Source: Mobula hypostoma (taxonomy: Eukaryota). Taken from it: a DNA stretch of 64,000 nt. The stretch covers positions 744,001 through 808,000 of the forward strand of contig NC_086097.1 in NCBI RefSeq assembly GCF_963921235.1. The letters are read 5' to 3'. The position numbers and the translations under genes were made by a program. This document shows, piece by piece, positions 25,601 through 51,570 of this stretch. Each line of letters starts with the position of its first letter. The stretch's first letter is position 1. Below the pieces are notes generated by a model. It did not search any database and was not told the DNA's origin. It was given only the letters and a program-made list of their open reading frames with translations.

Positions 25601-26568
25601 CCCATAAAGATTCTGCACCTTCCGATCCTATATCCCCTCTTTCTAATGATTTAATATCATTTCTTACCAATAAAGCCATGCCTCCCACTCTGCCTACCTT
25701 CCTATCCTTCCGATACACCGTGTATCCTTGGACGTTCAGCTCCCAGGGACATGCATCCTTTAGCCAGGTCTCAGTGATGGCCACAATATCATACCTGCCA
25801 ATCTGTAGCTGTACGACAAGATCATCCACCTTATTCCTTATGCTGCGTGCATTTAAGTATAACATCTTAAGACCAGTATTTGATACTTTCCACTTTGATT
25901 TCACTGCAACTTTATTACACTGCAACTCATCCCAATGGCTACAAATTTGCCCCATCACCCGCCTGTCTTTCCTGACATCTTTATCTTTCCTGACATCTTT
26001 ACTGCTCACTATCTTAGATTTATTTCTGTTTTCCCCTTCCTCCGCTCTGTCATTCCGGTTCCCATCCCCCTGCCAAATTAGTTTAAACCCTCCCTAACAG
26101 CTCTATTAAACTTTCCTGCCAGGAACGTTTGATGGCTCTCGGTCTGTACTCACTGGAATTTAGAAGGATAAGAGGGGATCTCATTGAAACATTTCGAATA
26201 TTGAAAGGCCTAGACAGAATAGATGTGGAAAGGATGTTTCCCATGGTGGGAGACTCTAGGACAAGAGGGCACAGCCTCAGGATTGAGGGGCGCCCTTTCA
26301 AAACAGAGATGTGGAGAAATTTCTTTAACCAAAGGGTAACTGAATTTGTGGAATTTGTTGCCACATACAGCTGTGGAGGCCAGGTCATTGGGTGTATTTA
26401 AGGCAGAGATTGTTAGGTTCTTGATTGGAGATGGCATCAAAGGTTACGGGGAGAAGACCAGGAATTGAAGTTAAGGAGGAGAAGAGAAAAGGATCAGCCA
26501 TGATTGAATGGCGGAGCAGACTTGATGGGCCAGATGGCCTAATTCTGCTCCGATGTCTTATGGGCTAA
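22677..26568 (+). mobile_element. CR1 3' region split by a 3.15-kb antisense CR1
   Basis: ...IPGMKGLSY at 22968 resumes as ERLMALGLYSLEFRR at 26121. Confidence 0.85.
22969..26120 (-). mobile_element. CR1 LINE with ORF1 end and complete but interrupted ORF2
   Basis: ORF1 end (LAGKFNRAVREGLN*), APE 25380-26009, RT 23074-24627 (517 aa); (TTATGGTC)n tail. Confidence 0.95.
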
Positions 26569-31749: not shown

Positions 31750-33806
31750 ATTTATAAAAACTCAACTCAATTTCATATCTATTGCTGCTGGTGCGTAACA
31801 AAAATTGGGGGCTCATCCAGGATTATGAACAAATTTGGAGCTTATTGATTGTTTAATTATCGACCTGATTGGGGATAAGGGACATACCCGATTCCTCTTG
31901 TTTGATTGGTTTGTGTGTGGTAATCAGCAGCAATGGATGTTGGGAGCTTTCTGGAATCACCAACTCCTACGGCATTAGGGAAAGCGAAAAAGGGTGCGGT
32001 GCTGGAAATTGCTAAGGAACTGAAGCTTACAGGGATAACGATGGCTACTACAAGGCCAGAGATTCAGAGGAAAATAGCTGAGCATTATATAGGTATGAAG
32101 TTGTTTGATGAAGAGGTTTTAGAGAAGTTTCCTGTAAGTAAAGATGTGATCTGGTTACAGCTAGAACAAATAGCGTTAGATAAACTTAAAATAGAGGCTG
32201 AGTTGGAACGAAGTCGATTAGAAGCTGCAGAGAAACAGGCAATATGATGCTAGAGAAACTGACAGACAGAGGGAAGAAGCTGAAAGACAGAGGGTGTTTG
32301 AGCTAGAAAAGATATAGAAATTGAAGCAAAGAGGTCTAGCGGGAGACTCTGGTGCACCATTTGTTGCTTGTCAGGAAGTTAAATTGGATCCTCCATTTAA
32401 TGAGGCAGATGTTGATAAATACTTCCACCATTTTGAGAAAGTTGCTCAGAGTTCACAGTGGCCGAAAAAGGGCTGGCTTGTCCTTTTACAACGTATATTT
32501 AAAGGTAAAGCACAACAGGTTTATACGGCCTTAAACAGTGAACAGGCAGCTGATTATGATACCGTGAAGCAGGTTAGACTTAAAGCTTATGAATTGGTTC
32601 CGGAAGCTTATAGACAGAGATTTAGGAGTCTGAAGAAATCTCTGAACCAGACTTATATGGAATTTGCCTATGACAAATCTGTGTGTTTTGAGCGTTGGTG
32701 CACCTCTAAAAATGTGAGTGGAGAGTATGACAACTTGAAAGAGTTGGTTTTAATAGAGAAATTTACAAGGTACATCCCTGATGGCATAAAGGCATATTTG
32801 GATGAAAAGGACCCTGCCACGTTGCCAAAGTCTGCTAAATTAGCAGATGAGTTTGTTCTCACCCACAAGAGTAAATTTACTCCGAGTAAGACTTTCCAAA
32901 AGAGCAGCATGGATAGTCAGGGTAAACCGGGAATTAAAACGGAAGCTCATGATAAGGGTAAGAATGAAGGGAAGCAAGTGAAGAAAAAACATTTTGGTCC
33001 TATTTGTCACTGTTGTAGGAAATCTGGTCATGTAATGGCTAACTGTTTCTGTCTGAAGAAGAAGGAAAAGGAGGCAGTTCCAGATGCCTGTGTCCAACAC
33101 TTTAAAATACCCGTAAACCTGCAGGGTTCGGGACATTCAAAGAAAGCTCTGACAAGGTCTGACCGAGATAGGAAGGGATTCGATCATTTTATGTCAGAGG
33201 GATTTGCTTCCATGAATGAAGGGTCCACTCAAGTACCAATAAAAATTCTTCGGGTTACTGGGGCTTCTCAGTCACTTATGTTAGACAGAGTTTAGTGATG
33301 AGACTGACATTGGTGAAGTAAATCTTATACAAGGTATTGAGGGCAACCTTATGCCTGCACCTCTGCACAAAGTAGTTTTAAAGTCAGGGATAGTTTCAGG
33401 ACCTGTTAAAATCGGACTATGACCCAGTTTACTGGTGGATAGTGTTTCTTTATTGTTGGGGAATGACCTAGCAGATGGAAAAGTTGTTCCTGCAGGGCAG
33501 CTGACAACTAAGCCGATCACTGATGATCCAAAAATGTATTCTAACATGTATCCCTCCTGTGCAGTAACCCGAGCTATGGAAAAAAAGTCTGCCGAGGCAG
33601 GTGGTTCTGTGCAGCATGGGTCTACTACCCATGACAGCTCAAATTGGGATTCAGATTCTGATGATTTGTCAGGAACTTTCCTACCTTCCTTGTTTGATCA
33701 AGATCCTTGTAGTGAGTCTGACCATAAAGACTTGTCTTTGTCTAGGAAGGAGATTATAGCGGAGCAGAGCAGGAATCCTGAGATTGCCACCTTGAGAGAG
33801 AATGCT
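31750..33806 (+). mobile_element. Truncated Gypsy LTR retrotransposon, Gmr1-like with SCAN-type gag
   Basis: LTR end ...gtaaca at 31800, then a primer-binding site (PBS). Gag PPFNEADVDKYFHHFEKVA...WP...GKAQ...AYELVPEAYRQRFR...LVLIEKF, CCHC knuckle CHCCRKSGHVMANC, protease ILRVTGASQS (catalytic D changed to V) and LLLGNDL. Confidence 0.85.
31806..31823 (+). promoter_or_regulatory. tRNA-Pro primer-binding site
   Basis: TGGGGGCTCATCCAGGAT versus canonical TGGGGGCTCGTCCGGGAT (2 mismatches, both CpG transitions), just after the LTR end. Confidence 0.8.
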
Positions 33807-39012: not shown

Positions 39013-41580
39013 CTCCTGGAGAGCAGCTGGTGGAGTGACGCAGCTTGCAGCGGCCACTCCGGTGGTGATGTGCGTTATCTGTCAAGTAGGGTGCCGTGCA
39101 CAATCCTGATTTGATGGAGACGGACGTGACAGCACGGAGGAACAGCTGGTGAAACTTCTAAAATGCCTGCTTCACTGCTGCTGCTACTGTGTGGTCTAGA
39201 ATCTCCGGAGGGGAAGGCCCCGAGTCCTCGACTTTGCTTGTTGCTCGGCGGTCGGGGCGGGGTCGAAGCGCTCGGCAGAAGATGGTGCTTGGAGAGGCTG
39301 TGTCGGAGGGGCTGGTCAGAGGCTCGAAGTTTTCAGACGGACTCGGAGTCCACTGCAGTCGGGTGCTTCCAATGGTGCTGCGTCGGCAAGTTTGCGGCGC
39401 TTGGAGGTTCATCGCAGGGAGAGTTTCTCCCTTCTACCGCCTGCATGAGATGATGAGGCTATCGAGACCTTGAGACTTTTTTTTACCGTGCCCATGGTCT
39501 GCTCTTTATCAAATTATGGTATTGCTTTGCACTGGTATAACTATATATTATAATTATGTGGTTCTGTAAGTTTTAGTCTTGGATTGTCCTGTGTTTTTCT
39601 TGCGATAAAAACGGACTGTAAAAGCTTTTATAGATATGTAAAAAGGAAAAGACTGGTAAAGACAAATGTAGGTCCCCTGCAGACAGAAACAGGTGAATTG
39701 ATTATGGGGAGCAAGGACATGGCAGACCAATTGAATAATTACTTTGGTTCTGTCTTCACTAAGGAGGACATAAATAATCTTCCAGAAATAGTAAGGGACA
39801 GAGGGTCCAGTGAGATGGAGGAACTGAGCGAAATACATGTTAGTAGGGAAGTGATGTTAGGTAAATTGAAGGGATTGAAGGCAGATAAATCCCCAGGGCC
39901 AGATGGTCTGCATCCCAGAGTGCTTAAGGAAGTAGCCCAAGAAATAGTGGATGCATTAGTGATAATTTTTCAAAACTCGTTAGATTCTGGACTAGTTCCT
40001 GAGGATTGGAGGGTGGTTAATGTAACCCCACTTTTTAAAAAAGGAGGGAGAGAAAAACCGGGGAATTATAGACCGGTTAGCCTAACGTCAGTGGTGGGGA
40101 AACTGCTGGAGTCAGTTATCAAGGATGTGATAACAGCACATTTGGAAAGCGGTGAAATGATCGGACAAAGTCAGCATGGATTTGTGAAAGGAAAATCATG
40201 TCTGACGAATCTCATAGAATTTTTTGAAGATGTAACTAGTAGAGTGGATAGGGGAGAACCAGTGGATGTGGTATATTTGGATTTTCAAAAGGCTTTTGAC
40301 AAGGTCCCACACAGGAGATTAGTGTGCAAACTTAAAGCACACGGTATTGGGGGTAAGGTATTGGTGTGGGTGGCGAATTGGTTAGCAGACAGGAAGCAAA
40401 GAGTGGGAATAAACGGGACCTTTTCAGAATGGCAGGCGGTGACTAGTGGGGTACCGCAAGGCTCAGTGCTGGGACCCCAGTTGTTTACAATATATATTAA
40501 TGACTTGGATGAGGGAATTAAATGCAGCATCTCCAAGTTTGCGGATGACACGAAGCTGGGTGGCAGTGTTAGCAGTGAGGAGGATGCTAAGAGGATGCAG
40601 GGTGACTTGGATAGGTTGGGTGAGTGGGCAAATTCATGGCAGATGCAATTTAATGTGGATAAATGTGAAGTTATCCACTTTGGTGGCAAAAATAGGAAAA
40701 CAGATTATTATCTGAATGGTGGCCGATTAGGAAAAGGGGAGGTGCAACGAGACCTGGGTGTCATTATACACCAGTCATTGAAAGTGGGCATGCAGGTACA
40801 GCAGGCGGTGAAAAAGGCAAATGGATGCTGGCATTTATAGCAAGAGGATTCGAGTACAGGAGCAGGGAGGTACTACTGCAGTTGTACAAGGCCTTGGTGA
40901 GACCACACCTGGAGTATTGTGTGCAGTTTTGGTCCCCTAATCTGAGGAAAGACATCTTTGCCATAGAGGGAGTACAAAGAAGGTTCACCAGATTGATTCC
41001 TGGGATGGCAGGACTTTCATATGAAGAAAGACTGGATGAACTGGGCTTGTACTCGTTGGAATTTAGAAGATTGAGGGGGGATCTGATTGAAACGTATAAG
41101 ATCCTAAAGGGATTGGACAGGCTAGATGCAGGAAGATTGTTCCCGATGTTGGGGAAGTCCAGAACGAGGGGCCACAGTTTGAGGATAGAGGGGAAGCCTT
41201 TTAGGACCGAGATTAGGAAAAACTTCTTCACACAGAGAGTGGTGAATCTGTGGAATTCTCTGCCACAGGAAACAGTTGAGGCCAGTTCATTGGCTATATT
41301 TAAGAGGGAGTTAGATATGGCCCTTGTGGCTACGGGGGTCAGGGGGTATGGAGGGAAGGCTGGGGCGGGGTTCTTAGTTGGATGATCAGCCATGATCATA
41401 ATAAATGGTGGTGCAGGCTCGAAGGGCCGAGTGGCCTACTCCTGCACCTATTTTCTATGTTTCTATGTTTCTATGATATCACTCTGGAGAAACATTGCAT
41501 CATTTTTTAATACATGCATTTCTAAATAACAATAAACGACGACTGAGTGTCCTCATAATCTAATCTAATCTAATCTAATT
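39013..41580 (+). mobile_element. Unclassified GC-rich non-autonomous retroposon, copy 1 (39013-39607 plus 41475-41580)
   Basis: Homologous to 51077-51570 and 47836-47985; ends AATAAA...(AATCT)n; no recognisable protein motifs. Confidence 0.7.
39604..41475 (+). mobile_element. Young 5'-truncated CR1 LINE
   Basis: RT ORFs 39584-40840 and 40825-41385 separated by one frameshift; (TTCTATGT)n tail. Confidence 0.95.
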
Positions 41581-43957
41581 GAAGCACAATTTACATTTAA
41601 AAGAGCAGTTGAAATACTGAATCAATGGAAACAGCAGACAGAGACAATTGAGTTGTAGTCAGGAATGAAAGTGAGTGTGAACAAAATTGCAATGTCTAAA
41701 CAGAAACGTGCTTAGCCAAACAAATTGTGTTACAGTTGTGGAGAGACAGACATACACCAGACCAATGCAGGTTTAAAGGTGAAATTTGCGAAAAATGTAA
41801 CAAAGTAGGACACATACAAGAGCCTATCAGGCAGACAAAAATAGAAGGACTGTACAGGGAAGAGATAAAGATAAAAAGTCAAGTTGCAGTTTCAAAAAAA
41901 AAGAAGCACTAATGAGCGCGCTGTTGATGAAAAATCTAATAATGATGAGAGTGACAAAGGACTGATAGCCTTGAGATTTATAATGTGAAAACATTAGACA
42001 AGTAATATGGCTTACAGCAAATTAATTAAAATGGAATTGGATATTGGGTCAGCTGTTTCAGTCACTCCACAAAACCTCATTTCAATGATACTAAACTAAA
42101 GCCTGCAGATATTCAACTAAGAACTCATACTGGAAAAAAGATAAATCCTGTGAAAATGACATTCATAACAGTGAAATCCAACAACCAACAATCCACATTG
42201 GGTTTGCATTTGATAAAAACAGGAGGACCAGCATTATGGGGTCATGATTGACTGAGACCACTACAACTTGATTGGAGACCCATCCACCATGCCACATCCC
42301 CTGTAATAGAATTAACTGAAAGCCAATTTTAATAAGTACTGGATGATATCATAGTAGTGTTTGAGGACTGCATTGGAAAACTCAAACATATCAAGGGTAA
42401 AATACTGTAAAATGAAAATGGCACACCCAAATTTTACAAAGCTTTTATGATTCCTTATACCATCTGTGATAAAGTACCCAGTGAGCTAAATCACATGGAG
42501 GCTGAAGGAATTCTTTCCAAAGTTGAGTGGAGCCCATGGGCCACGCCAGTGGTCCCAGTAGCCAAGTCTATCAAGATCTGTGATGATTTTGAGGTCACCA
42601 TCAACCCAGTACCGAAAGTAGATCAATACCTTCTTCCCAAGATAGAGGATATCTTTGCAAACCTTTCTATGGAGGAAAACACATCAGCAAAGCGGATTTA
42701 GCTGACGCCTACCTACAGATGGAGATAGTAGAAGAATCCAAAGTGTTTCTCATGATCATTCACAAAGAGCTTTATTGCTATTATAGGCTTATTTTTGGAG
42801 GAGCACCTGCACCTACACTCTGACAGAAAGCTATAGACCGGGAGCTGCAAGGCTGCCCCAGCCCTCAGTGTTACCTGGGTGACATTGTTATTACCGGTAA
42901 CAATGACAAGGAGCTCCACCAAAATCTTAAGCAGTGTTAAAAATATTAGAAGATTATAGGCTCAGAGCACAATGTCAGTGTGAATTCTTTAAACCACTTA
43001 ATGTGGTCACATCATTAATACACAAGATTTACATAAGGGTCTAGGCCTGAAATATTGACTGTTTACTCTTTTCCATAGTTCGCACCTGGCCTGCTGAGTT
43101 CCTCCAGCATTTTGTGTGTGTGGCATTGAGAAAATTCAAACAGGCTGAGGACATGTCACAGTTGTGATCCTTTTTAGGATTTCTCAATTACTATAACAGG
43201 TTGCTGTCAAACCTGACTACTGTTTTGTTAGATCAAACATTCTTTGCTGCAAAAATAATTAATTACTGGTTATATGTAAAAGTGCATGAATAACATACGT
43301 CATTATTTCAACATGTCATGATTTTGCACCTACAAGACCATAAGATATAGGAGCAGAATTAGACCATTTGGCCCGTCAAGTCAGCTCCGCCATTTCATCA
43401 TGGCCGATCTAATTTTCCTCTAAGCCCCAATCCCCTGCCTTCTCCCTATTTCCCTTCATGCCTTAACGAATCAAGAATCTACCAATCTCTGCCTTAAATA
43501 TACATAAAGCCTGTGGCACAGAATTCCATAGATTCACCACTCTCTGGCTAAATAAATTCTTCCTCATCTCCATTCTAAAAGGATGCCCCTCAATTATGAG
43601 GCTTTGACTTCTGGTCTTAGACTCTCCCACCATAGGAAACATCCTCTCCACACCCACCCTATCAGGGCCTTTCACCATTTCATAGGTTTCAATTAGGTCT
43701 CTCCTCATTCTTCTGAATTCCAGTGAATACACACCCAAAGCCATCAAACACTCTTCATGACAAGCCATTCAGTCCTGGAATCATTTTCATGAAGTTCCTT
43801 TCAACCCTCTCCTGTTTCAGCACATCCTTTCAAAGATAAGAGGCCCAAACCTGCTCACAATACTCCAACTGAGACATCACCAGTGCTTTATAAAGGTTCA
43901 ACATTCCATCCTTACTTTTATACTCTAGTCCTCTTCAAAGGAATGTTAATATTGCAT

Positions 43958-46900
43958 GGTTACACTTGAACTACAGGGGGACCAATATCCTTTCCGGAAG
44001 GTTTGTTAGTGCTGTTGGAGAGGCTTTAAACTAGATTTGCAGGGGGATGGGAATCAAGAGTGCCAGAGCTGACAGTGTGGCTGGGGTGAAAATAAATGAT
44101 GTTAAAAGTTCAAGCAAATCCACTAATAGAAAGGTTGTGAGTGGTGGTAAAAATCTTCTGAGCCGTATATATTTCAATGCTAGGAGTATTGCGGGGAAGG
44201 CGGATGAGTTGAGGGCATGGATTGACACGTGGAATTATGACGTTATAGCAATTAGTGAAACTTGGCTACAGGAGGGGCAGGACTGGCAGCTTAATATTCC
44301 AGGGTTCCGATGTTTCAGATGAGATCGAGGCAGAGGAATGAAAGGTGGGGGAGTAGCATTGCTTGTTAGGGAAAATATTACAGCAGTGCTCAGGCAGGAC
44401 AGATTAGAGGGCTTGTCTACTGAGTCCTTATGGGTGGAGCTGAGAAACAGGAAAGGTATGGCCATATTAGTGGGATTGTATTACAGACCACCCAATAGTC
44501 AACGAGAATTGGAAGAGCAAATCTGCAGCGAGATAGCAGGCAACTGCAGGAAACATAAAGTTGTGGGGGTAAGGGATTTTAATTTTCCATATATTGATTG
44601 GGACTCCCATACTGTTAGGGGTCTAGATGGTTTAGAGTTTGTAAAATGTGTTCAGGAAAGTTTTCTAAATCAATATATAGAGGGACCAACTAGAGGGGAT
44701 GCGATATTGAATCTCCTGTTAGGAAACGAGTTAGGACAAGTGCTCCTGTGTAGGGGAGCACTTTGGTTCCAGTGATCATAACACCATTACTTTCAACTTG
44801 ATCATGGACAAGGATAGATCTGGTCCTAGGGCTGAGGTTCTGAACTGGAAGAAGGCCAAATTTGAAGAAATGAGAAAGGATCTAAAAAGCGTGGATTGGG
44901 ACAGGTTGTTCTCTGGCAAAGATGTGATCGGTAGGTGGGAAGCCTTCAAAGGAGAAATTTTGAGAGTGCAGAATTTGTATGTTCCTGTCAGGATTAAAGG
45001 CAAAGTGAATAGGAATAAGGAACCTTGGTTCTCAAGGGATATTACAACTCTGATAAAGAAGAAGAGGGAGTTGTATGACATGTATAGGAAACAGGGAGTA
45101 AATAAAGTGCTTGAGGAGTATAAGAAGTGCAATAAAATACTTAAGAAAGAAATCAGGAAGGCTAAAAGACATAAGGTTGCCTTGGCAGTCAAGGTGAAGG
45201 ATAATCCAAAGAGCCTTTACAGGTATATTAAGAGCAAAAGGATTGTAAGGGATAGAATTGGTCCTCTTGAGATCAGAGTGGTCGGCCATGTGCGGAACCA
45301 AAGGAAATGGGGGAGATCTTAAATAGGTTTTTTGCGTCTGTATTTACTAAGGAAACTGGCATGAAGCCTATGGAATTAAGGGAAACAAGTAGTGAGATCA
45401 TGGAAACTGTACAGATCGAAAAGGAGGAGGTGCTTGCTGTCTTGAGGAAAATTAAAGTGGATAAATCCCCGGGACCTGACAGGGTGTTCCCTCAGACCTT
45501 GAAGGAGACTAGTGTTGAAATTGCAGGGGCCCTGGCAGAAATATTTAAAATGTCGCTGTCTACAGGTGAGGTGCCGGAGGATTGGAGAGTGGCTAATGTT
45601 GTTCCGTTGTTTAAAAAAGGATCGAAAAGTAATCCGGGAAATTATAGGCCAGTAAGTTTAACATCAGTAGTAGGTAAGTTATTGGAGGGAGTACTTAGAG
45701 ACAGAATCTACAAGCATTTGGATAGACAGGGACTTATTAGGGAGAGTCAACATGGCTTTGTGTGTGGTAGATCATGTTTGACCAATCTATTGGAGTTTTT
45801 CGAGGAGGTTACCAGGAAAGTCGATGAAGGGAAGGCAGTGGATATTGTCTACATAGACTTCAGTAAGGCTTTTGACAAGGTCCCGCATGGGAGGTGAGTT
45901 AGGAAGATTCAGTCGCTAGGTATACATGGAGAGGTGGTAAATTGGATTAGACATTGGCTCAATGGAAGAAGACAAAGAGTGGTAGTAGAAAATTGCTTCT
46001 CCGAGTGGAGGCCTGTGACTAGTGGTGTGCCACAGGGATCAGTGCTAGGTCGATTGTTATTTGTCATCTATATCAATGATCAGGATGATAATGTGGTAAA
46101 TTGGATCAGAAAATTTGCTGATGATACAAAGATTGGAGGTGTAGTAGACAGTGAGGAAGGTTTTCAGAGCCTGCAGAGGGAGTTGGACCAGCTGGAAAAA
46201 TGGGCTGAAAAATGGCAGATGGAGTTTAATACTGACAAGTGTGAGGTATTGCATGTTGGAAGGACAAACCAAGGTAGAACATACAGGGTTAATGTTAAGG
46301 CACTGAGGAGTGCAGTAGAACAGAGGGATCTGGGAATACAGATACAAAATTCCCTAAAAGTGATGTCACAGGTAGATAGGGTCGTAAAGAGAGCTTTTGG
46401 TACATGGGCCTTTATTAATCAAAGTATTGAGTATAAGAGCTGGAATGTTATGATGAGGTTGTATAAGGCATTGGTGAGGCCGAATCTGGAGTATTGTGTT
46501 CAGTTTTGGCCACCAAATTACAGAGAGGATATTAATAAGGTTGAAAGAGTGCAGAGAAGGTTTACAAGGATGTTGCCAGGACTTGAGAAACTCAGTTACA
46601 GAGAAAGGTTGAATAGGTTAGGACTTTATTCCCTGGAGCATAGAAGAATAAGGGGAGATTTGGTAGAGGTATATAAAATTATGATGGGTATAGATAGAGT
46701 GAATGCAAGCAGGCTTTTTCCACTGAGGCAAGGGAAGGAAAAAACCAGAGGACATGGGTTAAGGGTGAGGGGGGAAAAGTTTAAAGGGAACATTAGCGGA
46801 GGCTTCTTCACACAGAGAGTGGTGGGAGTATGGAATGAGCTGCCAGATAAGGTGGTAAATGCGGGTTCTTTTTTAACATTTAAGAATAAATTGGACAGAT

Positions 46901-47020
46901 ACATGGATGGGAGGTGTATGGAGGGATATGGTCTGTGTGCAGGTCAGTGGGACTAGGCAGAAAATGGTTCGGCACAGCCAAGAAGGGCCAAAGGGCCTGT
47001 TTCTGTGCTGTAGTTTCTAT
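43958..47020 (+). mobile_element. CR1 LINE with ORF1 esterase C-terminus and whole ORF2 (interrupted)
   Basis: GLHLNYRGTNILSGRFVSAVGEALN* (stop 44032), APE 44047-44775, RT 45307-46956. Confidence 0.95.
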
Positions 47021-47835
47021 TGTTTGTCTTCCTCACCACAGACTCAACAAGGATTCCCAAGTCCCTTTGCACCTCAGTTTTTTTTTGTATTTACTCCCCA
47101 TTTAGAAAATAGTCAACCCCTTCATTTCTTGTAGCAAAGTGCATGACCATACACTTCCTGACACTGCAGTCCATCTGTCATTTCATTGCCCATTCTCTAA
47201 TTCTATCGAAGCCTTTCTGTAGCCTCTAGTTCCTCAAAGCTACCTACCACTCCACCTGAGTATCATATGCAAGCTATGCAACAAAGCCATCAACTCCATC
47301 ATCCAAATCATTGACATATAACGTAAAAAGAATCAGTCCCAACACAGACCCTTGTGGAACACCACCAGTCACTGGCAGCTAGCCAGAAAAGGCTCCCTTT
47401 ATTCCCACTCTTTGCCTCCTGCCAATCAGTCACAGCTTTATCCATGCTAGTCTTTCTTGTAATACCATGGGCTCATAGCTTGCTAAGCAGCCTCATGTGT
47501 GGCACCTTGTCAAAGGCCTTCTGAAAATCCAAGTACACTATATCCACTGATATTCCTTTGTCTATCCTGCTTGCTATTTCTTCAAAGAATTTCAACTGAT
47601 TTGTCAGGCATGATTTTCCGTTCAGGAAATCATGTTGACTAAGGCCCTTTTTATTATGTGCCTGCAAGTACCCTGAAACCCCATCCTTAATAATCAACAC
47701 CAACCACAGAGGTCAGACTAACTGGCGTATAATTCCCCTTCTTCGCTCCCTTCTTGAAGAGTGGAGTGACATTTGCAATTTTCCAGTCTTCTGGAACCAT
47801 TCCAGAATCTAGTGATTATAAAAAGGTCATTACTA

Positions 47836-50800
47836 ATTAGATTAGATTAGATTAGATTATGAGGACATGCAGTCCTCTTTTATTGTCATTTAGTAATGCA
47901 TGCATTAAGAAATGATACGTTTTTCCAGAATGATATCACAGAAACACATGACAAATGGACATAAAAACTAACAAAACCACATAACCTGTACAGATTGGAT
48001 TGGTTGCACCTGAACCCGAGGGGGAGCAGTATCCTTGCAGGTAGGTTTGCTAGCATGGTTCGGGAGGGTTTAAACTAATTTGCAAGTGGGATGGGACCCG
48101 GAGCGATAGAGCAGTGAAAGAAGTGCATGGAGTAAAGCCAGATCTAACATACAGAGAGGCTTTGAGGAAAGAGAAGCAGAATAAAGGGTGTAAAGGTAGG
48201 AAGGCAGAAAGCCTGAAGTGTGTGTACCTCAATGCAAGAAGCATCAGGAACAAAGGTGATGAACTGAGAGCTTGGATACATACATGGAATTATGATGTAG
48301 TGGCCATTGCAGAGATTTGGCTGGTACCAGGGCAGGAATGGATTATCAATATTCCTGGATTTCAGTGCTTTAAAAGGGATAGTGGTGGGGGGGGGGAAGG
48401 GGAGGAGGGGTGGCATTACTGGTCAGAGATACTATTACAGCTACAGAAGGGGTGGGTAATGTAGCAGGATCCTCTTTTGAGTCAGTATGGCTGGAAGTCA
48501 GGAACAGGAAGGGAGCAGTTACTCTATTGGGGGTATTCCATAGGCCTCCTGGTAGCAGCAGAGATACAGAGGAGCAGATTGGGAGGCAGATTTTGGAAAG
48601 GTTCAAAAATAACAGGGTTGTTATCATGGGTGACTTTAACTTCCCTAATATTGATTGGCACCTGATTAGTTCCAAGGGTTTAGATGGGGCACAGTTTGTT
48701 AAGTGTGTCCAGGACAGATTCCTGTCACAGTATGTGGACAGGTCGACTAGGGGGAATGCCATACTAGATCTAGTACTAGGTAATGAACCGGGTTAGGTCA
48801 CAGATCTCTCAGTGGGTGAGCATCCGGGGGTCAGTGACCACCGCTCCCTGTTCTTCAGCATTATCATGGAAAAGGATAGAATCAGAGAGGACAGGAAAAT
48901 TTTTAATTGGGGAAGGGCAAATTATGAAGCTATTCGGCTAGAACTTGCGGGTGTGAATTGGGATGATGTTTTTGCAGGGAAATGTACTATGGACATGTGG
49001 TCGAAGTTTAGAGATCTCTTGCAGGATGTTAGGGTTAAATTTGCCCCAGTGAGGAAGATAAAGAATGGTAGGGTGAAGGAACCATGGGTGACAAGTGAGG
49101 TGGAAAATCTAGTCAGGTGGAAGAAGGCATCATACATGAGGTTTAGGAAGCAAGGATCAGATGGGTCTATTGAGGAATATATAGGGAAGCAAGAAAGGAG
49201 CTTAAGAAGGGGCTGAGAAGAGCAAGAAGGGGTCATGAGAAGGCCTTGGCAAGTAGGGTAAAGGAAAACCCCAAGGCATTCTTCAACTATGTGAAGAACA
49301 AAAGGATGACAGGAATGAAGGTAGGACCCATTAGAGATAACGGTGGGAAGATGTGCCTGGAGGCTGTGGAAGTGAGCGAGGTCCTCAATGAATACTTCTC
49401 TTTGGTATTCACCAATGAGAGGGAACTTGATGATGGTGAGGACAATATGAGTCAGGTTGATGTTCTGGAGCATGTTAATATTAAAGGAAAGGAGGTGTCG
49501 GAGTTCTTAAAACACATTAGGACGGATAAGTCCCCGGGGCCTGACAGAATATTCCCCAGAATGCTCCATGAGGCGAGGGAAGAGATTGCTGAGCCTCTGG
49601 CTAGGATCTTTATGTCCTCGTTGTCCATGGGAATGGTACCGGAGGATTGGAGGGAGGCGAATGTTGTCCCCTTGTTAAAAAGAGGTAGTAGGGATAGTCC
49701 GGGTAATTATACACCAGTGAGCCTTACGTCTGTGGTGGGAAAGCTGTTGGAAAAGATTCTTAGAGATAGGATCTCTGGGCATTTAGAGAATCATGGTCTG
49801 ATCAGGGACAGTCTGCATGGCTTTGTGAAGGACAGATCGTGTCTAACAAGCCTGATAGAGTTCTTTGAGGAGGTGACCAGGCATATAGATGAGGGTAGTG
49901 CAGTGGATGTGATCTATATGGATTTTAATAAGGCACTTGACAAGGTTCCACATGGTAGGCTTATTCAGAAAGTCAGAAGGCATGGGATCCAGGGAAGTTT
50001 GGCCAGGTGGATTCAGAATTGACTTGCCTGCAGAAGGCAGAGGGTGGTGGTGGAGGGAGTACATTCAGACTGGAGGATTGTGACTAGTGGTGTTCCACAA
50101 GGATCTGTTCTGGAACCTCTACTTTTCGTGATTTTTATTAACGATCTGGATGTGGGGGTAGAGGGGTGGGTTGGCAAGTTTGCAGATGACACAAAGGTCG
50201 GTGGTGTTGTGGATAGTGTAGAGGATTGTCGAAGATTGCAGAGAGACATTGATAGGATGCAGAAGTGGGCTGAGAAGTGGCAGATGGAGTTCAACCCCGA
50301 GAAGTGTGAGGTGGTACACTTTGGAAGGACAAACTCCAAGGCAGAGTACAAAGTAAATGGCAGGATACTTGATAGTGTGGAGGAGCAGAGGGATCTGGGG
50401 GTACATGTCCACATATCCCTGAAAGTTGCCTCACAGGTAGATAGGGTAGTTAAGAAACCTTATGGGGAGTTAGCTTTCATAAGTCGAGGGATAGAGTTTA
50501 AGAGTCGCGATGTGATGATGCAGCTCTATAAAACTCTGGTTAGGCCACACTTGGAGTACTGTGTCCAGTTCTGGTCGCCTCAATATGGGAAGGATGTGGA
50601 AGCATTGGAAAGGGTACAGAGGAGATTTACCAGGATGCTGCCTGGTTTAGAGAGTATGCATTATGATCAGAGATTAAGGGAGCTAGGGCTTTACTCTTTG
50701 GAGAGAAGGAGGATGAGAGGAGACATGATAGAGGTGTACAAGATATTAAGAGGATTAGATAGAGTGGATAGCCAGCGCCTCTTCCCCAGGGCACCACTGC

Positions 50801-51570
50801 TCAATACAAGAGGACATGGCTTGAAGGAAAGGAGTGGGAAGTTCAAGGGGGATATTAGAGGAAGGTTTTTTACTCAGAGAATGGTTGGTGCATGGAATGC
50901 ACTGCCTGAGTCAGTGGTGGAGGCAGATACACTAGTGAAGTTTAAGAGACTACTAGACAGGTATATGGAGGAATTTAAGGTGGGAGGTTATGTGGGAGGC
51001 AGGGTTTGAGGGTCGGCACAACATTGTGGGCCGAAGGGCCTGTAATGTGCTGTACTATTCCATGTTCTATGTTCTGTTATAACATATAGTTACAACAGTG
51101 CAAAGCAATACTGTAATTTGATAAGAACAGACCATGGCACGGTAAAAGTCTCAAAGTCTCTTGAAAGTCCCATCATCTGACGCAGACGGTAAACCTCCAG
51201 TGCCGCAAACTTGCCGATGCAGTATACTGGAAGCATCCGACCACAGTCCGACTCCGAGTCCGTCCGAAAACTCCAAGCCTCCAGCCAGCCCTCCGACACT
51301 GAGCACTGACCACCATCTCTGCCAAGCACTTCAACACCGGCCCCAGCAACAGGGAATAGGCAAAGCCGAGGATTCGGGGCTTGCCCCTCCGGAGATTCTC
51401 GATCACACAGTAGCAGCAGCAGCAAAGCAGGCATTTCAGAAATTCCTCCAGGTGTTCCTCCATGCTTCTCACGGCTGTCTCCATCAAATCAGGATTATGC
51501 ACGGCCCCCGAGTTAACACATACGATATTCATTCGGAACGGCCATGCGTGCCGCCATCTCCTCCTCCCTC
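47836..51570 (-). mobile_element. Unclassified GC-rich non-autonomous retroposon, copy 2 (51077-51570 plus 47836-47985)
   Basis: Begins ggaggagATGGCGGC on its sense strand; (ATTAG)n tail at 47836-47860; homologous to copy 1. Confidence 0.7.
47986..51077 (+). mobile_element. CR1 LINE with ORF1 esterase C-terminus and whole ORF2 (interrupted)
   Basis: LYRLDWLHLNPRGSSILAGRFASMVREGLN* (stop 48076), APE from 48114, RT 49246-51009, (TTCTATG)n tail. Confidence 0.95.

Follow-up and report, generated by a model that had tools for sequence, protein, structure and literature searches.

A conserved candidate signal for −1 ribosomal frameshifting at the ORF1–ORF2 junction of CR1-like LINEs from Mobula hypostoma and of their relatives

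The 64,000-nucleotide stretch of the Mobula hypostoma genome considered here (NCBI RefSeq assembly GCF_963921235.1, contig NC_086097.1, positions 744,001 to 808,000 of the forward strand; hereafter the window, with positions counted from its first letter) harbors CR1-like long interspersed nuclear elements (LINEs), in which the junction of the first and second open reading frames (ORF1 and ORF2) may serve as a site of −1 ribosomal frameshifting. The window holds three such junctions, one from each of three element families: A (44022–34), B (48066–78) and C (26078–90, minus strand). The family B copy is a dead, 5'-truncated CR1-like LINE: its homology to the family starts at ~47984 (query position 24–26 in 39/39 other scored matches across the 3.48-Gb genome), and other family B copies extend 5' of this point into a full esterase ORF1. 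The layout that the initial annotation gave for the end of ORF1 was right, although the window copy keeps only ~31 ORF1 codons and the full ORF1 is found elsewhere in the genome.

In the family B copy, ORF1 ends with GAG (48064–66), GGT (67–69), TTA (70–72), AAC (73–75) and TAA (76–78). The window letters bear out the two overlapping heptamers reported there, GGGTTTA (48066–48072) and TTTAAAC (48069–48075), both of which stand in X_XXY_YYZ phase with the stop. The −1 frame, said to run open into the apurinic/apyrimidinic endonuclease (APE) domain with no AUG on the way, is in fact open already from 48054, right behind a TAG at 48051–53; it reads CTA ATT TGC AAG TGG GAT and proceeds to the start of APE (...LKCVYLNARSIRNK) with no ATG, its translation being HGSGGFKLICKWDG...LKCVYLNARSIRNKGDELRAW. 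The nearby ATG at 48091 lies outside the ORF2 frame, as claimed, and opens only a short ORF1-frame stretch with TGA after 8 codons. The G tract described downstream is present, but it reads GTGGGATGGGA in the window copy, GGGGGATGGGA being the family form. The 13-mer spanning the junction is not over-represented in the window, since it has 13 matches with up to 3 mismatches vs 21.6 expected; two exact matches and one with 2 mismatches are the homologous ORF1/ORF2 junctions of the three CR1 families (48066, 26078 on the minus strand, and 44022).

Table 1. Features of the three CR1-like junctions and of the family B copy in the window.
Feature	Position	Strand	Remarks
Candidate slippery heptamer T_TTA_AAC	48069..48075	+	In ORF1 phase; last 7 nt of ORF1
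Second in-phase heptamer G_GGT_TTA	48066..48072	+	Unconserved; only in families B and C
ORF1 stop codon TAA	48076..48078	+	Directly 3' of the heptamer
G tract GTGGGATGGGA in the window B copy	48086..48096	+	10 nt 3' of the heptamer; family form GGGGGATGGGA
ORF1 remnant, ~last 31 codons (...DWLHLNPRGSSILAGRFASMVREGLN), 5'-truncated CR1-like LINE, family B	47984..48075	+	
ORF2 (APE endonuclease and reverse transcriptase)	48054..51009	+	−1 to ORF1; several frameshifts and stops in the window copy
3' untranslated end: GGGCC..GGGCC hairpin-like stretch, short TTCTRTG-like direct repeats, no poly(A)	51010..51075	+	
Family A junction	44025..44052	+	TTTAAAC 44025–31, TAG 44032–34, G tract GGGGGATGGGA 44042–52, private 1-nt insertion ~44056
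Family C junction	26060..26087	-	TTTAAAC 26087–81, TAA 26080–78, G tract GGGGGATGGGA 26070–60

Full-length relatives elsewhere in the genome possess an ORF1 of 311 aa from Met, which ends exactly at the heptamer and comprises a zinc-knuckle-like N-terminus (CxxC...CxxC), a coiled-coil-like stretch and an SGNH esterase domain (Pfam PF13472, E 5e-14). The ORF1-encoded protein (ORF1p) also matches PDB 4c1b, the esterase of ORF1p of zebrafish ZfL2-1, at E 1.3e-29, and the ORF1-frame translation of the full-length copies runs ...RAVVIGDSIVRGADRRFCG...HVGTNDI...DGLHLN...GRFASMVREGLN up to the stop. The −1 ORF of a full-length family A copy matches Pfam PF03372 and PF14529, and reverse transcriptase (RT) motifs are present in ORFs of the window. 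The 3' ends are devoid of poly(A) and harbor a short GC hairpin-like stretch along with TTCTRTG-like repeats (..attccatgttctatgttctg..); the 3' end of copy A (~46957–47030) has the same layout as that of family B. A 3' end lacking poly(A) and carrying a hairpin and short direct repeats is a hallmark of CR1. The nearest named relatives of ORF1p come from birds, turtles, a snake and elasmobranchs. By these features, the element is CR1-like and likely belongs to the CR1-group LINEs with an esterase-type ORF1.

The comparison covered four families of this genome (hereafter the shark families): those found in the window and the very young family D, which was found by walking upstream from an RT fragment at 39554. 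The junction codons are GCT TTA AAC TAG in family A, GGT TTA AAC TAA in families B and C, and ACT TTA AAC TAG in family D. The residue preceding Leu differs (Ala, Gly, Thr), and its codon ends in U throughout; Leu is encoded by UUA and Asn by AAC in all four families. Hence, the heptamer is kept at synonymous positions, a check that the initial annotation had called for, with a U-ending preceding codon in spite of the amino acid change. The identity of the first 560 ORF2 residues, compared for three of the families, amounts to 50% (A/B), 38% (A/C) and 39% (B/C). The second heptamer, G_GGT_TTA, fared differently as a conserved site: GGGTTTA is missing from families A (GGCTTTA) and D (GACTTTA), so only U_UUA_AAC is conserved.

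Among the copies fetched (30 per family), TTTAAAC together with the stop is intact in 29 A, 30 B and 29 C copies (88/90); since divergence is low, this retention in dead copies is, taken alone, no evidence of selection. The APE motif is found in the −1 frame and can be reached with no intervening stop in 26/30 A, 28/30 B and 15/29 C copies; of the remaining family C copies, 6 have an intervening stop, and in 8 the APE motif was not found. In families A and B, the −1 ORF has its first Met only within APE (codons 104 and 185, respectively), and the 188 codons of family D include no Met at all. Thus, the claimed lack of an ORF2-frame AUG ahead of the endonuclease holds for three of the four shark families but not for family C (see below). 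The window A copy is the sole A copy with a seemingly in-frame ORF2 (44035), an appearance owed to a private 1-nt insertion (gggaatcaagag vs gggaaccagag in the family). This insertion (window 44049–44060), located just 3' of the G tract, could mislead comparisons limited to window copies. When 61 ORF1p C-termini were compared by tblastn with the window and with the sequence flanking the 90 fetched loci, only the central junctions came up and no further junction family. At the locus L037:1566, 11–27 contigs per run (four sequencing runs) match family A only from the heptamer on; the upstream sequence (..GCTGCACGGTGGGG) suggests an additional family whose ORF1 ends with ..GGT TTA AAC, with the similarity between the families resuming exactly at the heptamer.

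A profile-free search with ORF1p among 1.84 billion cluster representatives yielded 3091 matches at E up to 1e-3. The C-termini were tallied for the best 150 of these 3091 (representatives of 50% identity clusters), 47 of which end with ..LN. The proteins were considered C-terminally complete when the alignment extended to at least query residue 290, with at most 25 residues beyond (n = 95). Asn is the last residue in 61 of them (46 xLN, 8 QGN, 2 KN, 2 EN, 2 SN and 1 FN); the remaining 34 have other ends. The named LN-ending ORF1p are those of a sawshark, three turtles, a snake and a swallow. Two gene models continue in the −1 frame through TTTAAAC, namely a stingray model with ..ARGGFKLDVQGAG.. 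(..GGFKLDVQGAG) and a stork model with ..SFKLDLKGEGDN... Of 4 long-protein matches considered for a natural element with ORF1 and ORF2 fused in frame, the two inspected, P0151 and P0154, are gene models running −1 through the heptamer; P0157 is an internal-deletion chimera, and none of these three speaks for such an element. Three further ORF1p homologs (P0101, P0106 and P0067) end with ..FFR or ..FFH; these ends would be compatible with a U-rich slip site (UUU UUY) one codon ahead of the stop.

At the DNA level, a metagenome scan with alignment A1 (the QGN, SKN and EN group) returned 42 loci, and a scan with P0163 alone gave no match. Locus L094 reads CAG GGA AAC TAG and is followed by a −1 ORF of 835 codons with APE and RT; L096 reads GCG GGA AAC TAG. 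Hence, the prediction that the QGN end corresponds to G_GGA_AAC is confirmed on DNA: in other lineages, a different canonical heptamer occupies the same place. In L103, L105, L106, L110, L115 and L117, GCT or TCT is followed by TTA AAC TAG, and L097 has TCG TTA AAC TAG with a −1 ORF of 821 codons. Pfam PF00078, PF03372 and PF14529 were detected in the predicted frame of L094, L097 and L115. The peptide ends ..SKN and ..EN suggest further lineages with A_AAA_AAC and G_GAA_AAC, respectively.

Taken together, the layout of the junction and its frames are conserved across deep divergence. The stop codon adjoins the heptamer in 13/13 −1 junctions known as DNA (TAG in 11, TAA in 2, TGA in 0), UUA is used in 10/10 and AAC in 13/13 of them, and GCU, GGU, ACU or UCU precedes the fixed UUA AAC in diverged relatives with an ORF2 N-terminal identity of 33–50%. 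The overlap of the ORF1 and ORF2 frames is 13–58 nt in 10/12 junctions and 121 nt in the remaining two, and no canonical in-phase slip site other than the heptamer is shared by all these overlaps. Since the −1 frame of L106 becomes open just one codon 5' of the heptamer, any shift there is pinned to the heptamer.

Both elements named as candidate stimulators, i.e., the adjoining stop and the G tract, are conserved. The G tract (G4-6 N1-4 G3-4, starting at +7 to +12, with a mode of 10) was found in 11/11 −1 junctions examined vs 0/5 in-frame junctions; across 29,473 nt of these loci it occurs 29 times, the 11 junction cases counted, which gives a background of ~0.6% per 6-nt window. It takes the form GGGGGAUGGGA in families A, B and C, GGGGGGUGGGA in family D, GGGGGAAGGGG(A) in L105, L106, L115 and L117, GGGGUGAAGGG in L094, GGGGGACAGGG in L096 and GGGGGCGAGGG in L097. 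Outside the 11-junction set, the decayed L110 displays GGGGG with no second run, and L103 ends 5 nt past the stop. The tract usually encodes G-x-G, but in L097 it is read in another codon phase (A-G-A-R-D); thus, it is the RNA motif that is kept, not the peptide. The ATG within GGGGGATGGGA was considered as the ORF2 start and rejected: it opens no more than 8–20 codons, and these in the ORF1 frame, and it is lost in family D (GGGGGGTGGGA). By comparison with known systems, the spacing of the tract would fit a structure-like barrier if slippage takes place with the stop in the A site (4–9 nt from the stop), and a protein-bound motif if it is a classical P/A-site event.

In a sister clade, ORF2 lies in frame with ORF1. 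At the six loci concerned (L099, L100, L101, L111, L113 and L124, of which L111 and L124 are near-identical; ORF1p ends of the ZfL2-1 type, ..SKTLHTI, ..TTLRH, ..SRLK and ..SHPN), ORF2 is situated behind TGA-C in 6/6 cases. L099 and L101 have TGA CTA G, presumably the strongest readthrough context known in vertebrates. A run of 830 open codons with APE and RT is present in L100 and L113, and no Met precedes APE in L113, L111 and L099. An ORF2 tree with 10 rows has a branch with 100/100 support between the 7 rows of the −1 type and the 3 with ORF2 in frame. The layout of stop readthrough, with ORF2 in frame behind a leaky stop, is therefore that of the sister clade and not that of the window element (−1, TAA or TAG), and this ZfL2-1-like clade becomes a candidate for programmed stop-codon readthrough. 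Accordingly, the expectation that ORF2 is always −1 to ORF1 stands for the four families and 9 metagenome junctions but not for the sister clade. Since the latter seems to have a recoding signal of its own, the varying frame offset extends the frameshift idea and does not refute it. Moreover, two alternative signals for recoding during elongation at one and the same junction would argue for a fusion product, as reinitiation does not require these signals.

The ORF1–ORF2 fusion by −1 frameshifting proposed in the initial annotation thus draws comparative support: programmed −1 frameshifting on U_UUA_AAC, yielding ORF1p as the main product and an ORF1–ORF2 fusion as the minor one, is probably how these elements express ORF2. 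The arrangement, frames and conservation of the junction are observed; that ribosomes slip there, how efficiently they do so, the fusion they would make and what the stop and the G tract contribute are inferred. In this scenario, a minority of the ribosomes would slip one base back at U_UUA_AAC, with the Leu and Asn tRNAs re-pairing from UUA AAC to UUU AAA. Next, CUA would be read, and elongation would enter the AUG-less APE–RT frame to give an ORF1–ORF2 fusion with the junction ...GLN-LI.... The non-slipping ribosomes would terminate at once and supply abundant ORF1p, much as Gag and Gag-Pol are made. Both the stop adjoining the heptamer and the G tract 10 nt past it likely belong to the signal, and slippage may occur while the ribosome, its E and P sites on the heptamer, pauses at the stop.

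A number of findings weigh against frameshifting of this kind. A classical structured stimulator was not found: RNAfold, applied to modal real copies, revealed no conserved hairpin or pseudoknot 3' of the heptamer. The z-scores of minimum free energy for +7 to +107 against dinucleotide shuffles were +0.9 (A), −2.3 (B), +0.3 (C) and +0.6 (D), RNAalifold gave a consensus of −0.12 kcal/mol with 2 pairs for the four shark families, and four bird/turtle-like junctions had only a weak hairpin in common (RNAalifold, −6.3 kcal/mol, with no compensatory change). There were 0 matches in Rfam at E up to 1. A G-quadruplex was rejected as a general stimulator, the two-layer form being predicted in only 3/10 junctions (shark C, shark D and L106; ViennaRNA with G4 energies). 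Structured stimulators are usually located 5–9 nt downstream of the slip site, and the 10-nt spacer here is longer. Departures from the canonical heptamer occur in its P-site part, as shown by G_UUA_AAC in L097 and by the EELN end of the sawshark ORF1p. The scarcity of residues lacking a U-ending codon (K, E, Q, M, W) before LN, 2/47 vs 15% at the preceding eight positions taken as the background, is modest evidence (binomial 0.02, with rows that are not independent). Independent initiation of ORF2 is possible in family C, with a Met at codon 38, ahead of APE, and in L105, L115 and also L112, with an ORF2-frame AUG at codon 4. In the L2 element ZfL2-1, ORF1p has been described as dispensable in a HeLa assay (PMC3905857).

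The ORF2-frame AUG of L105, L112 and L115, which represent bird/turtle-like CR1, is located two codons past the ORF1 stop (UAG NNA UGA AGG GGG). These lineages might have added stop-proximal initiation or switched to it.

Termination–reinitiation, in which a 40S subunit or the whole ribosome would restart nearby on an AUG or a near-cognate codon in the −1 frame and make a separate ORF2 protein (ORF2p), is a rather unlikely alternative, even though this mechanism was proposed for ORF2 of human L1 and the stop is found directly at the junction in 13/13 cases. The fifth −1 codon counted from the first base of the heptamer is AUG in L105, L115 and L112, GUG in L110 and UUG in family A, as reinitiation would have it, but UGC or UGG, which are not near-cognate, in families B, C and D; a start codon overlapping or near the stop in the ORF2 frame is present only in L105, L115 and L112 and in none of the shark families. 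Above all, reinitiation needs no heptamer, yet UUUAAAC and GGGAAAC (as DNA) and AAAAAAC (deduced from ..SKN) share their place and phase; nor does it account for the third base of the preceding codon, which is kept while the amino acid varies. The strict in-frame UGA-C of the sister clade (6/6) suits readthrough instead. In a review that cites the coupling in SART1, ORF2 initiation in non-LTR elements, i.e., those with no long terminal repeats (LTRs), is treated as open (PMC3894237), which leaves room for reinitiation.

The adjoining stop and the invariant A_AAC core (AAAC TA in 11/11) could also be accounted for by re-pairing after termination: upon release, an 80S ribosome carrying deacylated tRNA-Asn would shift from AAC to AAA and resume at CUA, producing an unfused ORF2p. 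The mechanism is reported from in-vitro work on post-termination ribosomes, but it leaves the homopolymer at heptamer positions 1–3 (UUU or GGG, matching the P-site or E-site codon) unexplained, and the in-frame UGA-C of the sister clade points to recoding in the elongation phase; hence, we regard it as very unlikely here. Least credible, with hardly any probability left to it, is the absence of recoding, whereby ..LN would be a conserved C-terminal peptide of ORF1p and G-x-G an N-terminal peptide of ORF2p, with ORF2 translated from an internal entry site or from a subgenomic or spliced RNA. The C-terminal N is indeed invariant in alignment A1, and the G-x-G peptide is kept in most −1 lineages. 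However, peptide conservation fixes neither the UUA/AAC choice nor the third base of the variable preceding codon, and in L097 the sequence of the G tract is kept despite the altered phase and peptide. As weak evidence against a separate RNA, contigs of four runs, whose RNA status is a guess, cross the junction colinearly with no joint there. They have 0 gaps, and no indel is listed at the heptamer, although rare variants are lost from contigs and some of the material may be DNA; the contigs neither show expression nor exclude slippage at the RNA level.

Programmed −1 frameshifting at U_UUA_AAC could be a part of a wider picture, which we put forward tentatively and hold to be possible rather than probable. 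The esterase-ORF1 LINEs of the whole CR1/L2 group might make their endonuclease–RT as a recoded ORF1–ORF2 fusion, the CR1 clade by a so far undescribed type of −1 signal and the L2-like clade by UGA-C(UAG) readthrough, and the signal would then predate the split of cartilaginous fish and amniotes. The CR1 signal would consist of an X_XXA_AAC heptamer, an obligatory adjoining stop and a linear G tract (GGGGG N2-4 GGG) ~10 nt downstream. The tract might act via a host factor binding G tracts, a G-quadruplex-like fold or a contact with the ribosome, and not via a hairpin or pseudoknot.

The surroundings of the junctions in the window deserve a brief description. A (GATTA)n microsatellite (47839–47860) separates a minus-strand RT fragment (47250–47830) from the truncated family B copy. 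The same unclassified repeat, beginning with ..ccataagacatcggagcagaattaggccat.., is found directly 5' of the A and C copies (43338–43950 on the plus strand and 26140–26562 on the minus strand), in equal relative orientation and with different breakpoints; chance, a preferred target or microhomology at the 5' junction could explain this arrangement. In addition, a Gag-like ORF with a CCHC zinc knuckle (..CHCCRKSGHVMANCF..) and a separate RT-like fragment are situated at 32318–33295 and 42400–43000, respectively; both apparently stem from an LTR-type retroelement with no relation to the CR1 copies.

In many vertebrate genomes, including those of birds, reptiles and many fishes, CR1-group elements dominate among the LINEs. 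The 2013 review of protein biogenesis in non-LTR elements, as far as its available part goes, still describes the translation of ORF2 in LINEs besides L1 or SART1 as an open question and leaves its initiation open with no mention of frameshifting in CR1 (PMC3894237). In the searchable text of a 2026 survey of the CR1 group, a term search found frameshift, overlap, reinitiation and fusion nowhere (PMC13343379). Overall, no description of frameshifting in CR1 was met in the literature searched; the papers that first described CR1 and ZfL2-1 and the entry notes in Repbase lie outside it, and the bare −1 overlap may be noted there. Nor was any account met, within the same literature, of the conservation of the junction, its heptamer variants, the stop that always adjoins them, the G tract or the contrast with UGA-C readthrough in the sister clade. 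The heptamer–stop–G-tract signal would offer a concrete and testable answer to the question of how LINE ORF2 is translated and, possibly, a new class of frameshift stimulator. The predicted Gag-Pol-like ORF1–ORF2 fusion would explain cis-preference and the low dose of ORF2p. For annotation, it would provide a simple rule for distinguishing intact from damaged CR1 copies, the −1 offset being native and not a mutation.

Among known systems, the retroviral and LTR-element gag-pol is expressed either by −1 frameshifting at X_XXY_YYZ, as in Rous sarcoma virus, human immunodeficiency virus 1 and mouse mammary tumor virus, or by stop readthrough, as in murine leukemia virus, and coronaviruses use U_UUA_AAC between ORF1a and ORF1b. 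Similarly to gag-pol, the CR1 junction has an in-phase canonical heptamer at the end of the upstream ORF and a polymerase ORF in the −1 frame without a start of its own; a fusion made at a low ratio is predicted for CR1, and the related elements seemingly employ readthrough of an in-frame stop. By analogy, the −1 and UGA-C layouts mirror the two gag-pol strategies of retroviruses, and the parallel would reflect convergent or shared expression logic of LTR and non-LTR retroelements. Unlike gag-pol, CR1 is a non-LTR LINE whose ORF1 encodes an esterase, not Gag; it lacks a conserved hairpin or pseudoknot, its stop always adjoins the heptamer, and its G tract starts at +7 to +12. Another precedent is the −1 frameshifting of arteriviruses and cardioviruses, which is stimulated by a protein at an unstructured or small motif 10–14 nt past the slip site. 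CR1 may resemble these systems in that a linear motif ~10 nt downstream takes the place of a closely spaced pseudoknot; unlike theirs, the CR1 motif is G-rich (GGGGG N2-4 GGG) and is not known to be bound by a protein.

The use of −1 frameshifting for the expression of pol is well established in retroviruses and LTR elements (PMC5009743). Closer to CR1, TRE5-A and TRE3-A of Dictyostelium are said to require a −1 frameshift for ORF2 translation (PMC5911963), the only such statement on LINEs met in the literature searched. Like CR1, they are APE-type LINEs, although of another LINE clade, in another host and with another type of ORF1. SART1 relies on the coupling of stop and start in UAAUG, as outlined in the 2013 review (PMC3894237). 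With SART1 and human L1, CR1 shares a bicistronic LINE RNA in which the translation of ORF2 would depend on ribosomes arriving from ORF1. However, SART1 and L1 make a separate ORF2p and need no slippery site, whereas the shark families of CR1 have no start codon at the stop and retain a conserved heptamer.

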